In this document: piece by piece, positions 9,675 to 18,997 of the stretch | How positions within the stretch are numbered: position 1 is the first letter of the stretch | Layout of the letters: every line of letters begins with the position of its first letter | Source: Escherichia coli | Lineage (GTDB): Bacteria; Pseudomonadota; Gammaproteobacteria; Enterobacterales; Enterobacteriaceae | Length of the DNA stretch: 64,000 nucleotides | Assembly (NCBI RefSeq): GCF_041886205.1 | Contig: NZ_CP169029.1 | Reading direction: 5' to 3' (one strand) | Notes under the pieces: model-generated | The model's input: only the letters and a program-made list of their open reading frames with translations | What the model was told of the DNA's origin: nothing | Database searches by the model: none | Position numbers and translations under genes: made by a program

Positions 9675-10214
9675 TTACCACATCAAATCATCAGGCACTT
9701 TGAAGTCGGCATACGGGTCGTCTTCATCCTGCTCTTCGGCGCTGAGCGCGCTGTGCAACACTATACTGCTGGCATCACGCTGAGCAATTTTATCGGCAAC
9801 GCTGGCGGGAATAATTGCGTATTCACCTTCGCTATTGTTATCGAGCAACAAGCGGGCAATCGCCAGACGACCATTAATCAACTGCGCCTGTGTGAGCTTA
9901 TCGACAAAAATCTTCTTAATCAGATTGCCGTCAGTGAAGTTAAAACCAATATCACCATTGGCAATGGTGATTCGGTTCATTTCAATGAGCTGCTTCACCT
10001 GGGCTTTATATTCTTTCGCCAACGCCGCTTGTTTTTGTTGCTCGCTAAGCTGTTTATCACGCTCAAGCTGTGCCTTTTTATTTTCTTCTACCGCTGCCCG
10101 AGCTTCACGCGCCTGAACACGCGATTTTTTCGCCGTTCTCTCCACCTTCGCTGCTTTTTTGCTGGTGACTAATCCTGCTTTGAGCAACTGCTCTTGTAAG
10201 GTAAGTTTTGCCAT
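9675..10214 (-). CDS. yaiL: YaiL (DUF2058) protein
   Basis: 179 aa from MAKLTLQEQLLKAG; listed ORF extends upstream to 10331. Confidence 0.85.
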   Translation of the reverse strand: MAKLTLQEQLLKAGLVTSKKAAKVERTAKKSRVQAREARAAVEENKKAQLERDKQLSEQQKQAALAKEYKAQVKQLIEMNRITIANGDIGFNFTDGNLIKKIFVDKLTQAQLINGRLAIARLLLDNNSEGEYAIIPASVADKIAQRDASSIVLHSALSAEEQDEDDPYADFKVPDDLMW

Positions 10215-16308: not shown

Positions 16309-17973
16309 TCAGGCTACCTTTTCGACAGAAACGTCGGCATCAGGGCTGGTCAGCGTCATCACCGACGCCAGTTTATTCAGGGTCTTGCCCAGGGTTTGCG
16401 GAATGGCGGTGGCGGCAACAAAGCGATCCGGGCGTATCACCACCAGCGAAGCATTGTGTTGCGCGAACCAGCTACGCAGGCGACCTTGCGTATCCCCCAC
16501 GCGTAGTACGCCGTCGTGGTTATCCTGTGCGGTATGAATTTGCACTTCCGGCACCACCTGAATGAAGCGTGTGCCCAACGCGCGCCACTGCTGGATTTGC
16601 TCGTCGCTCATCCCCCACAGTGGATTGCATCCCCAGCCAATTACCGCAAAGTTCGCGCCGATCGCGTTATCGAGCAGCGTCACGTCGCCGTTTTCCAGCG
16701 TGACTTTCGGCTGAATAAACATCTTGCCGACCGGAGAGTGCTTCGCTTCGCCCTCACGCACCAGCGCACCGCCGTAATATTGCGGCATCGGCTTGAAGCG
16801 CATTTCGAGGAAGTAGCGTTTTACTGGCGGCAGATAATTCAACAGCCAGGAAACGCCGTCACGTAACGTACCCTGCCAGCGTTTCGGCGGAGCCAGCACG
16901 TTGCCCGCCGTCACGGACAGGTCAATCATCGCTTTGGCGTGATCGCGACGTTCTTGTTGATAGGTATCGAGCAGCGCATCGCGGGCTTTCCCCTGGATAA
17001 CCAACGCCAGTTTCCATGCGAGGTTAAAGGCGTCGCGCATACCACTGTTATAGCCCTGCCCCTGCCATACCGGCATGATGTGCGCGGCATCGCCCGCCAG
17101 CAGTACGCGATCAATACGGAAACGTTGCGCCAGTCGCGCGTTGTGGGTGTAGACACGCTGGCGAATCAATTCAACATTGTCCGGATTAGGCAGCACTTTG
17201 CTTAACAGCTTGCGCATATTTTGCGGCTCACGCAGCTGTTCTTCGGTTTCTCCCGGCATCACCATAAATTCAAAGCGACGTACCGCATGAGGCAGCGCGG
17301 CAGAAACATACGGGCGCACCGGATCGCAACACAAATAGATATGCGGCGTACTTAACGGATCGTTGGCGATATCCACCACAATCCACTGATTTGGCGCGGT
17401 TTTACCTTCAAACGGCACATTCAGGGTGCGACGGACAAAACTTGCCCCACCATCACAGGCTACCAGCCACTGGGCTTTGACCGTTTCCCGCTGCCCTTCT
17501 GCCGTTTTCAGGTGCAAGGTCACTTCGTCATTTTGCTGGCTGAAGGCCTCCAGCTCGCGGGCAAACAAGCAGCGCACATTCGGAAAACGCGACAACCCTT
17601 CCAGCATCACCGCATCGACCTGTGGCTGAATAAAGGCGTTACGGCGCGGCCAGCCAAATTCATCGGTCATTGGCTGAATATCAGCAAAACAGCGGCCTTT
17701 TGGGGTGAGAAAACGCATCGCGTGCCACGGTGTAGTGTGCGGCAGAACATTATCGACCAGGCCAACCGACTGCATGGTGCGCAGCGCCTCGTCATCAATA
17801 CCAATCGCACGCGGGTAGTCGATCAACTTATCGAGTTTCTCCACCACCAGCACGTCAATGCCCATCTGGCCGAGATAGTTCGCCATCATCAGCCCAACCG
17901 GACCGGCACCAGCGATCGCCACCTGAACGCTATGGTTAACAGCAGGCTGGATGTCAGGGTGTTGTATTGCCAT
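16309..17973 (-). CDS. mhpA: 3-(3-hydroxyphenyl)propionate hydroxylase (FAD monooxygenase)
   Basis: 554 aa; FAD-binding [22 protein letters not shown]-terminus. Confidence 0.95.
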
Positions 17974-18114
17974 TTCAGTACCTCACGACTCGGACAAAAT
18001 GCCGTTGCGCGCACAGTACGGCGCAACTTATTTTGTTAAAAACATGTAAATGATTTTTTATTGTGCGCTCAGTATAGGAAGGGTGTTTTCGGCTACAATC
18101 AAAATATGCCCGAA

Positions 18115-18131
18115 TGTGCACCAGGTGCACA
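18115..18131. promoter_or_regulatory. Perfect 17 bp palindrome TGTGCACCAGGTGCACA in the mhpR-mhpA divergent region (candidate MhpR operator)
   Basis: Exact inverted repeat 33 bp upstream of the mhpR start. Confidence 0.5.
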
Positions 18132-18163
18132 ACGTTGTTTTAACTATAGAAATGTCAATTAAT

Positions 18164-18997
18164 ATGCAGAACAATGAGCAGACGGAATACAAAACCGTGC
18201 GCGGCTTAACCCGCGGTCTAATGTTATTAAATATGTTAAATAAACTTGATGGCGGTGCCAGCGTCGGGCTGCTGGCGGAACTCAGCGGCCTGCATCGCAC
18301 CACTGTGCGGCGACTGCTGGAGACGCTGCAGGAAGAGGGATATGTCCGGCGTAGTCCCTCCGATGATAGTTTTCGTCTGACCATCAAAGTGCGGCAATTA
18401 AGCGAAGGATTTCGTGACGAACAGTGGATTTCTGCACTGGCGGCCCCGCTGCTGGGCGATCTGTTACGCGAAGTGGTATGGCCGACAGATGTGTCCACGC
18501 TGGATGTTGATGCAATGGTGGTACGCGAAACCACCCACCGTTTCAGCCGCTTATCCTTTCACCGGGCAATGGTCGGGCGGCGTTTACCGCTTCTGAAAAC
18601 CGCCTCGGGCCTGACCTGGCTGGCCTTTTGCCCGGAACAAGAACGCAAGGAATTAATCGAAATGTTAGCCACCCGTCCCGGTGATGACTATCAACTTGCA
18701 CGGGAACCGTTAAAACTGGAAGCCATTCTGGCGCGGGCGCGCAAAGAGGGGTACGGACAGAACTACCGCGGCTGGGATCAAGAAGAAAAGATCGCCTCTA
18801 TCGCCGTACCGCTGCGCAGTGAACAACGGGTGATTGGCTGTCTGAATCTGGTGTATATGGCGAGCGCAATGACCATCGAACAGGCAGCGGAAAAGCATCT
18901 TCCGGCACTACAACGGGTAGCAAAACAGATCGAAGAAGGGGTTGAATCGCAGGCTATTCTGGTGGCCGGACGGCGAAGCGGCGTGCATTTACGTTGA
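18164..18997 (+). CDS. mhpR: IclR-family activator of the mhp operon
   Basis: 277 aa from MQNNEQTEYKTVRGLTRGL; divergent from mhpA; ORF open upstream to 18050. Confidence 0.9.
   Translation: MQNNEQTEYKTVRGLTRGLMLLNMLNKLDGGASVGLLAELSGLHRTTVRRLLETLQEEGYVRRSPSDDSFRLTIKVRQLSEGFRDEQWISALAAPLLGDLLREVVWPTDVSTLDVDAMVVRETTHRFSRLSFHRAMVGRRLPLLKTASGLTWLAFCPEQERKELIEMLATRPGDDYQLAREPLKLEAILARARKEGYGQNYRGWDQEEKIASIAVPLRSEQRVIGCLNLVYMASAMTIEQAAEKHLPALQRVAKQIEEGVESQAILVAGRRSGVHLR

Follow-up and report, generated by a model that had tools for sequence, protein, structure and literature searches.

Which role do the two palindromes play that lie between the divergent genes mhpR and mhpA of Escherichia coli, and do they act as DNA or as RNA? 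A first-pass annotation of a 64-kb stretch of E. coli DNA (in the following "the window", meaning the whole stretch that was analysed) had pointed them out and had put forward the one closer to mhpR as a candidate operator for MhpR. Here, both palindromes were compared with published sites, with the other E. coli genomes and with the mhp loci of other genera.

Sequence context of the two palindromes

The junction around the palindromes is that of E. coli lacZ-lacI-mhpR and mhpABCDFE. The elements needed first are these:

16309–17973, minus strand: mhpA coding sequence, 554 aa; NCBIfam equivalog model NF004827, 1284 bits against a cut-off of 966
18004–18027, no strand assigned: palindrome 1, inner stem GTTGCGC/GCGCAAC with a 10-nt loop; +39 to +62 of the predicted leader of the mhpA promoter Pa, −52 to −29 of the mhpR promoter Pr
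18115–18131, no strand assigned: palindrome 2, MhpR operator, TGTGCACC-A-GGTGCACA, core GTGCAC-N3-GTGCAC at 18116–18130; about −50 to −66 of the predicted Pa, +60 to +76 of the mhpR transcript
18164–18997, plus strand: mhpR coding sequence, 277 aa, IclR family; equivalog model NF007341, 344 bits against a cut-off of 269

The start codon of mhpR is at 18164, not at 18165, and the intergenic length between mhpR and mhpA is 190 bp. All genes of mhpABCDFE are on the minus strand, and upstream of palindrome 1 the plus strand is free of genes. A 351-bp region was 100% identical to E. coli LHM10-1 and occurred in 4896 out of the 5426 complete genomes of E. coli; the mhpR gene shares 97–98% identity with its counterparts in other Escherichia. 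When the enterobacterial intergenic regions were aligned, the conserved blocks were the operator, the −35 region and −10 of Pa, an A/T-rich block containing the ArcA site and the −10 of Pr, and the SD region.

Both palindromes were recovered as described, by inspection of the sequence and by an inverted-repeat scan. Palindrome 1 has perfect 7-nt arms, GTTGCGC (18004–18010) and GCGCAAC (18021–18027), 10 nt apart and followed by TTATTTTGTT at 18028–18037. Palindrome 2 is a perfect 17-bp palindrome with 8-nt arms, TGTGCACC (18115–18122) and GGTGCACA (18124–18131), around a central A. For 64 kb neither of them alone is statistically unusual: perfect palindromes having arms of 8 nt or longer and a spacer of 0–1 nt number 3 in the window (2.4 ± 1.6 in shuffled sequence), and hairpins having 7-nt perfect arms and loops of 3–12 nt number 94 (42 ± 8 in shuffled sequence). 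What lends the two palindromes significance is where they are located, their conservation and the mapping that has been published.

The MhpR operator and its alleles

The E. coli MhpR operator of Torres et al. 2003 is given in the table of a review on the IclR family (PMC8222616) as GGTGCACCTGGTGCACA. On the mhpA sense strand, K-12 MG1655 reads exactly GGTGCACCTGGTGCACA at the homologous position, and the window is identical to it in 16 out of 17 bases. The operator listed in that review thus coincides with palindrome 2 and is not a different sequence, so that the proposed assignment to MhpR was borne out. The two sites have locus, position and core in common and differ only in the outermost base, which is T in the window where K-12 has the first G; it is the T that makes the palindrome perfect.

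To count the alleles, complete E. coli genomes were searched with 35-nt queries, chosen so that any 28-nt seed within them has to span the SNP. The T allele occurred in 3080 genomes and the G of K-12 in 1503; T is hence the majority allele in E. coli, about 63% of the E. coli genomes carrying the perfect form of the palindrome. T is also the consensus across genera.

With regard to context, the operator adjoins an orthologue of mhpR that is divergent from mhpA, both proteins scoring above the cut-offs of the equivalog models for MhpR and MhpA. The operators of the PcaU/PobR/PcaR/HmgR group, as given in the same review (PMC8222616), are likewise dyads of 15–17 bp in the spacer between a divergent regulator gene and its operon and likewise serve IclR-type activators, and MhpR is placed in this group there. 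MhpR also scores with the PcaR/PcaU/PobR subfamily model, but below the cut-off. Compared with the operators of that group, the MhpR half-site GTGCAC is self-complementary, and therefore the MhpR site is at the same time a direct repeat with a period of 9 bp.

According to secondary sources MhpR is a 3HPP-dependent activator of Pa and is indispensable for CRP to bind there; the same kind of source states for K-12 that 3HPP, PP and DHPP stimulate the binding of MhpR to its operator in the mhpABCDFE promoter. Published accounts already exist for the operator, for the ArcA site and for the control of the region by CRP. Judged by its sequence, its context and its conservation, palindrome 2 belongs to the class of MhpR operators.

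Conservation of the operator

The scan of species-representative genomes with MhpR covered 80 loci from Escherichia, Citrobacter, Kluyvera, Shimwellia, Pluralibacter, Edaphovirga, Pseudomonas, Azotobacter, Marinobacterium, Zobellella and Nitrincola. The core GTGCAC-N3-GTGCAC was present without mismatch at most 140 bp upstream of mhpR in 64 out of 81 loci, and with one mismatch in 9 others. One would expect 0.05 exact core sites in the 447 kb of sequence from these loci; 73 were found, all of them in intergenic DNA flanking mhpR. Directly upstream of mhpR are 63 of these, the remainder being located in neighbouring intergenic DNA of loci with another gene order.

The two GTGCAC hexamers are invariant and their flanks are randomised, a pattern which is that of a site for a sequence-specific dimeric protein and not of an RNA stem. 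Positions 8 and 10 of the operator vary mostly in a symmetrical way, as C..G or T..A (50 of 73 loci). The distance from the operator to the mhpR ATG is nearly fixed in the 73 loci, at about 29–57 bp and at 41 bp in most enterics, whereas mhpA lies anywhere from 88 to over 400 bp away.

Two promoters facing each other

The position of the operator relative to both promoters was derived from published mapping on the mhpR side and from conserved sequence blocks on the mhpA side. The elements are the following:

17997–18018, plus strand: annotated CRP site of the mhpR promoter (−59 to −38), AAATGCCGTTGCGCGCACAGTA, in K-12 AAATGTCG...; placed by the position given in a preprint together with the start at 18056; overlaps the left arm and the loop of palindrome 1
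18033–18064, plus strand: ArcA site, three direct repeats TTGTTAAAAACATGTAAATGATTTTTTATTGT, identical in sequence to the published site; −23 to +9 of the mhpR promoter
18056, plus strand: mapped mhpR TSS, from converted ArcA-site coordinates; the conversion reproduces the mhpR ATG
18071–18076, minus strand: predicted −10 hexamer of Pa, TATACT; in Pseudomonas through to E. coli, YATACT stands 47–48 nt away from the operator centre
18092–18104, minus strand: conserved block TTTTGATTGTAGC (mhpA sense), −35 region of Pa, between operator and −10, at fixed spacing to the operator
18150–18171, no strand assigned: weak CRP-like sequence TGTCA-N6-ATGCA (6/10), read from the sequence; centre 18160.5, overlapping the mhpR ATG, would be at −95.5 of Pa

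For mhpR, an ArcA ChIP study (Park et al. 2013; PMC3798270, Tables S3, S4 and S6) reported an ArcA site of three direct repeats at U00096.2 367744–367775, from −23 to +9 of the mapped TSS, and found mhpR-lacI derepressed 23.9-fold in an arcA mutant. As these repeats correspond to 18033–18064 in the window, transcription of mhpR starts at 18056. Consequently the operator is itself transcribed, at +60 to +76 inside the 5'UTR of mhpR, which comprises 108 nt (18056–18163) and has no SD. That palindrome 2 is located just upstream of mhpR, as had been noted, is therefore correct for the gene but not for its promoter. A promoter for mhpR between the operator and the ATG had also been considered; it is ruled out by the position of the ArcA site relative to the mapped TSS.

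The ArcA site includes an extended −10-like element (TG at 18034–35, TAAAAA at 18037–42), and the TTGT-TAAnnn element is kept in all enteric genera examined. The site begins within the T-rich tract that the first-pass annotation had described behind palindrome 1. As sequence this tract is there; on the mhpA sense strand it is an A-tract preceding the stem, and on the DNA, the ArcA site and the −10-like element of mhpR start with it. A Reg-Seq preprint states that the real −10 of mhpR is near −20 and is bound by ArcA, and, citing Manso 2011, it places the CRP site of mhpRp2 at −38 to −59.

The interval 17997–18018, with the half-sites TGYCG and GCACA, is the best CRP-like match upstream of TTGT-TAAAAA (18033–42), with 6/10 in the window and 7/10 in K-12. 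It is located exactly 32 bp from the centre of the −10-like element, in class II geometry, and this only in Escherichia; the match in Citrobacter and Kluyvera reaches only 3–5/10. When TGTGA-N6-TCACA was used as the CRP consensus, no site of at least 7/10 was found between 17940 and 18200. The ArcA and CRP sites of the mhpR promoter overlap palindrome 1 and are not the palindrome itself, its arms being the spacer of the CRP site and the stretch from CRP to −10. Palindrome 1 as the CRP dyad itself was rejected: the centres are 8 bp apart (18015.5 versus 18007.5) and the arms are not CRP half-sites.

For mhpA, a TTTTSRTTGT block is kept in enterobacteria and Pseudomonas at constant spacing from the operator. 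Together with the conserved hexamer it suggests a start of Pa near 18064/18065. Because YATACT is conserved 47–48 nt from the operator centre (18123), this centre would be near −58/−59 of Pa. The operator is a probable activator site for the divergent Pa; with regard to mhpR, it does not precede the promoter. MhpR reportedly is located at −58 and CRP at −95.5; a figure of −40.5 is likewise said to have been given. A start at 18065 fits the first two, −58 with the operator centre at 18123 and −95.5 with the CRP-like centre at 18160.5. The CRP-like sequence at 18150–18171, whose TGTCA half is conserved in enterics, is a candidate for the CRP site of Pa. Pa and Pr face each other, and with the predicted Pa start about 10 nt at the 5' ends are transcribed from both.

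A scan of 17850–18300 with the sigma-70 consensus called no promoter; the promoters of this region are thus too weak, or depend too much on activators, to be picked up in this way. The supplements of Reg-Seq, PredCRP and Conway 2014 contained no usable TSS or CRP-site data for this region. According to the scheme favoured here, MhpR would bind the two GTGCAC half-sites and, with its inducers 3HPP, PP and DHPP, would activate the sigma-70 promoter Pa of mhpABCDFE; binding of MhpR would also be required for the action of CRP at Pa.

Autoregulation and further readings of palindrome 2

The operator lies downstream of the mapped mhpR TSS and keeps its distance to the mhpR ATG and not to mhpA. It could therefore be thought of as also or mainly autoregulatory, with MhpR at +60 to +76 acting as a roadblock or repressor of Pr. 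However, a PmhpR::lux fusion with 200 nt upstream of mhpR was reported to be constitutive, and neither pH nor 3HPP nor PP had an effect. A constitutive mhpR promoter means that palindrome 2 is not an inducer-responsive autoregulatory operator, and the fixed distance may only reflect the compact divergent architecture. Pr is described in the literature as MhpR-independent. Altogether, autoregulation appears quite improbable.

Another regulator, NtrC or CRP, might have palindrome 2 as its physiological target. The mhpR/mhpA spacer is the first-listed peak of the NtrC genomic SELEX (88%), and the operator, which contains TGCACC and TGGTGCA, shares the words TGCACC/GGTGCA with the NtrC box TGCACCAnnnTGGTGCA. 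For CRP, the window allele reads TGTG-N9-CACA and reaches 8/10 core matches, though only when the spacer may be 7 nt long. The spacing of the half-sites is wrong in both cases, though: those of the operator are 4 bp closer than NtrC needs, and CRP would need 1 bp less. Furthermore, K-12, the strain used for SELEX, has no outer TGTG...CACA symmetry. The SELEX peak is an in vitro result, no in vivo evidence for NtrC at this spacer was found, and nitrogen control of mhp was not reported in the literature examined. A role of palindrome 2 as target of either protein is therefore highly improbable.

Finally, palindrome 2 as an attenuator- or terminator-like RNA hairpin in the long mhpR 5'UTR instead of a protein site is hardly credible: it is transcribed, a consensus scan flags it on the plus strand as terminator-like (7-bp stem, 3-nt loop, then ACGTTGTTTT), the downstream ACGTTGTTTTA is invariant in enterics and mhpR mRNA was reported to rise 15-fold at pH 4.4 with unchanged promoter activity, but the U-tract begins 3 nt past the stem, the fold of the mhpR 5'UTR is not significant (z = −1.1) and has no local hairpin in its MFE structure, the stem lacks compensatory substitutions, GTGCAC is invariant over very distant genera as in a protein-contact signature, and a protein footprint on the site is published according to the sources cited above.

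A candidate stem-loop in the mhpA leader

On the mhpA sense strand, palindrome 1 extends to a larger structure:

17994–18036, minus strand: extended bipartite hairpin with outer arms ACAAAAT (17994–18000) and ATTTTGT (18030–18036), ending 9 nt upstream of the mhpA SD, GAGG at 17981–17984

In E. coli, the single-sequence fold of 17994–18036 has a dG of −16.3 kcal/mol (z = −2.2). The hairpin is part of an insertion of about 60 nt which is specific to Escherichia, Citrobacter and Kluyvera and is variable in sequence between the conserved blocks. In Pluralibacter, Edaphovirga and Pseudomonas, TTAACAA leads nearly straight to the SD and the hairpin is absent; it must therefore be dispensable for mhp regulation as such. 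Where the insertion exists, a different stem is found per genus at the same place, namely GTTGCGC/GCGCAAC, AATTGC/GCAATT, GGCGG.../...CCGCC and GCGCGCTTG/CAAACGCGC. The hairpins across these genera range from −10 to −26 kcal/mol with z of about −2 to −8 in single-sequence folds, for which three rows were ignored.

When the E. coli structure was scored on the alignment, 82% of the cells were paired, against 35–50% in slid controls. There were 7 pairs with double changes, a count that is not made up of independent events as the Citrobacter sequences are closely related, and the covariation score was reached by 0 of 500 shuffles. G.U cells numbered 23 on the mhpA sense strand and 5 on the other strand. 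Two SNPs occur in the hairpin within E. coli, one in a bulge and one in an internal loop. RNAalifold, run on the leader alignment, returned an empty consensus without a column-consistent structure, and the whole Pa leader was not more stable than shuffled sequences (z = −0.4). The covariance models of Rfam 15 assigned no family, with two matches at chance level (E = 0.09–0.27, far under the gathering scores). A dispersed repeat of the REP/BIME or ERIC type was rejected, palindrome 1 occurring at a single place per genome in 4896 genomes.

Like the leader stem-loops and intrinsic terminators of enterobacteria, palindrome 1 has an A-tract and a U-tract on either side of a GC-rich stem, lies between TSS and SD and shows compensatory change. 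It differs from them in that the hairpin starts at about +30 and not at the extreme 5' end, in that the U-run of the sense strand is not adjacent to the stem, and in having no Rfam family. The reading we favour, with about an even chance or slightly less, is that the hairpin forms in the leader of the mhpA mRNA (about +30 to +72 from the predicted start, 9 nt in front of the SD) and has an effect on stability or translation.

Palindrome 1 may also have no function of its own, its dyad symmetry being a by-product of the CRP site and of the mhpR promoter's upstream region, or of a neutral insertion in the leader. Hairpins with 7-nt arms are frequent, as the 94 of the window illustrate; the annotated CRP site falls on the left arm and loop; other genera have a working mhp locus without the hairpin; and RNAalifold gave no consensus. 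On the other hand, Citrobacter and Kluyvera have not kept the CRP-like match and yet form strong hairpins of other sequence at the same place, and the centre of the hairpin (18015.5) is not that of the CRP site (18007.5). We regard an incidental dyad as rather unlikely.

Clearly unlikely, in our view, is an intrinsic terminator, on the plus strand or bidirectional, that would shield the mhpR promoter from antisense transcription out of mhpA. The shape invites this idea. On the plus strand the 7-bp GC-rich stem stands directly before UUAUUUUGUU, and with the A-tract before the stem and the T-tract after it the arrangement resembles bidirectional terminators. The fold of the plus strand has a dG of −18.3 (z = −2.0), and in Kluyvera and C. 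sedlakii the plus strand forms the more stable hairpin. However, the nominal loop is 10 nt long, compared with 3–8 nt for a Rho-independent terminator, and a scan with standard criteria made no call. With respect to position, palindrome 1 does not close a transcription unit: the plus strand upstream of it has neither a gene nor a known promoter, and on the minus strand it falls into the 5' leader of mhpA. By the G.U asymmetry, the mhpA sense strand is the favoured one, and there the U-run begins 4 nt past the stem, which would make a poor terminator.

Possible roles of the hairpin and consequences for mhp control

At the DNA level, the class II CRP site covers the left arm and the loop of palindrome 1, and the T-tract is where the mhpR promoter's ArcA site and −10-like element begin. 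A further proposal, tentative and less likely than not, is that the bipartite hairpin is an uncharacterised cis element that was acquired by the mhpA leader of Escherichia, Citrobacter and Kluyvera. As RNA it might tune the stability or translation of mhpA; as DNA it might underlie a CRP/ArcA-controlled mhpR promoter that fires face-to-face into Pa, so that both promoters would be coupled by transcriptional interference. In a weaker variant, the operator palindrome, which is transcribed in the mhpR 5'UTR, acts at the RNA level too; this could explain the post-transcriptional rise of mhpR in acid.

Taken together, we consider it very probable that palindrome 2 is the activator operator of MhpR at Pa, and that mhpR starts at 18056 facing Pa. 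For palindrome 1, a stem-loop of the mhpA leader is the most likely reading. The operator has been kept along with mhpR across the Gammaproteobacteria. In E. coli, the textbook operator of K-12 is a minority and imperfect allele of a site which is mostly a perfect palindrome. To establish what the leader hairpin does would add modestly to the understanding of how the catabolism of aromatic acids is tuned in gut enterobacteria.

Alleles and repeat expansion of the MhpR operator

The published MhpR operator (18115–18131, core GTGCAC-N3-GTGCAC) differs between the window and the K-12 locus, L002, at its outermost base, position 18131, which is T here and G in K-12. By exact 28-mer matching, the T allele, which makes the palindrome perfect, was found in 3080 complete E. 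coli genomes versus 1503 for the G allele; neither exact 28-mer was present in about 300 further complete genomes. The imperfect-palindrome G allele of the K-12 reference operator is a minority form in E. coli. At the outer positions of the operator the cross-genus consensus reads T...A.

A different kind of variation was seen in E. coli Z1323HEC0011 (locus L083), the sole record among 4900 to fall within the 90–95% identity band. An 18-bp insertion, aligned to window 18115–18131, consists here of two additional GTGCACCAG units, and the operator holds four GTGCAC hexamers with a period of 9 bp. The insertion reveals a dual nature of the operator, which besides being a palindrome repeats a self-complementary hexamer in direct orientation, and it shows the site to be slippage-prone.

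The operator also resembles the sites of other regulators. Its half-sites contain TGCACC and TGGTGCA (window 18116–18130), which are words of the NtrC box (consensus TGCACCAnnnTGGTGCA) at the wrong spacing, and in an NtrC genomic-SELEX study the mhpR/mhpA spacer was the first-listed peak (88%). Furthermore, the allele in the window can be read as TGTG-N9-CACA, which is a CRP core lengthened by 1 bp. A palindrome scan of the 64-kb window returned two further perfect 8+1+8 palindromes, CACCATTGGCAATGGTG and ATTATCGCCGCGATAAT, located, in that order, as follows:

9953–9969, perfect 8+1+8 palindrome
54509–54525, perfect 8+1+8 palindrome

Promoters and leaders between mhpR and mhpA

Between the operator and the -10 element of the mhpA promoter Pa lies a block, TTTTGATTGTAGC (window 18092–18104), which is kept at fixed spacing from Pseudomonas, where its form is TTTTCGTTGT, to E. 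coli. Rather than acting as a -35 box, this block could provide MhpR with an extended contact or serve as a second half-site.

Rightward transcription of mhpR, with its start mapped to 18056, faces leftward transcription from Pa, whose inferred start is at about 18065; the ArcA site at 18033–18064 covers both starts. With Pa starting there, some 10 nt would be common to the mhpR and mhpA transcription units, and the two promoters may interfere with each other transcriptionally. An inverted-repeat scan also found a 13-nt inverted repeat with 85% complementarity (TGCGCGCACAGTA / TATTGTGCGCTCA, window 18006–18018 and 18059–18071), which joins the loop of the other palindrome, the probable mhpA leader hairpin (18004–18027), to the region of both transcription starts.

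At the accepted mhpR ATG (18164) a recognisable Shine-Dalgarno sequence is absent. The MFE structure predicted for the 5'UTR pairs the invariant ACGTTGTTTTA with mhpR codons 2–4 (CAGAACAAT) around the start codon, within 18132–18175. Post-transcriptional induction of mhpR has been reported at pH 4.4. Traced further upstream, the mhpR frame remains open as far as an ATG at 18050, which precedes the mapped transcription start by 6 nt and would give an ORF of 315 aa.

Operator placement in other mhpR loci

In the Pseudomonas loci L027, L028, L032–L049 and others, the intergenic regions measure 290–470 bp, with 30–41 bp from the operator to the mhpR ATG and about 260–430 bp to the mhpA homologue; the latter gap may be taken up by a long leader or by a small gene that has escaped recognition. 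Where a divergent mhpA is missing, the exact GTGCAC-N3-GTGCAC core is shifted to other intergenic regions flanking mhpR, either 199–324 bp upstream of the gene (L024–L026, L029, L066, L082) or directly 3' of its stop codon (L042, L050, L056, L081). These displaced cores presumably sit before catabolic genes of different arrangement.
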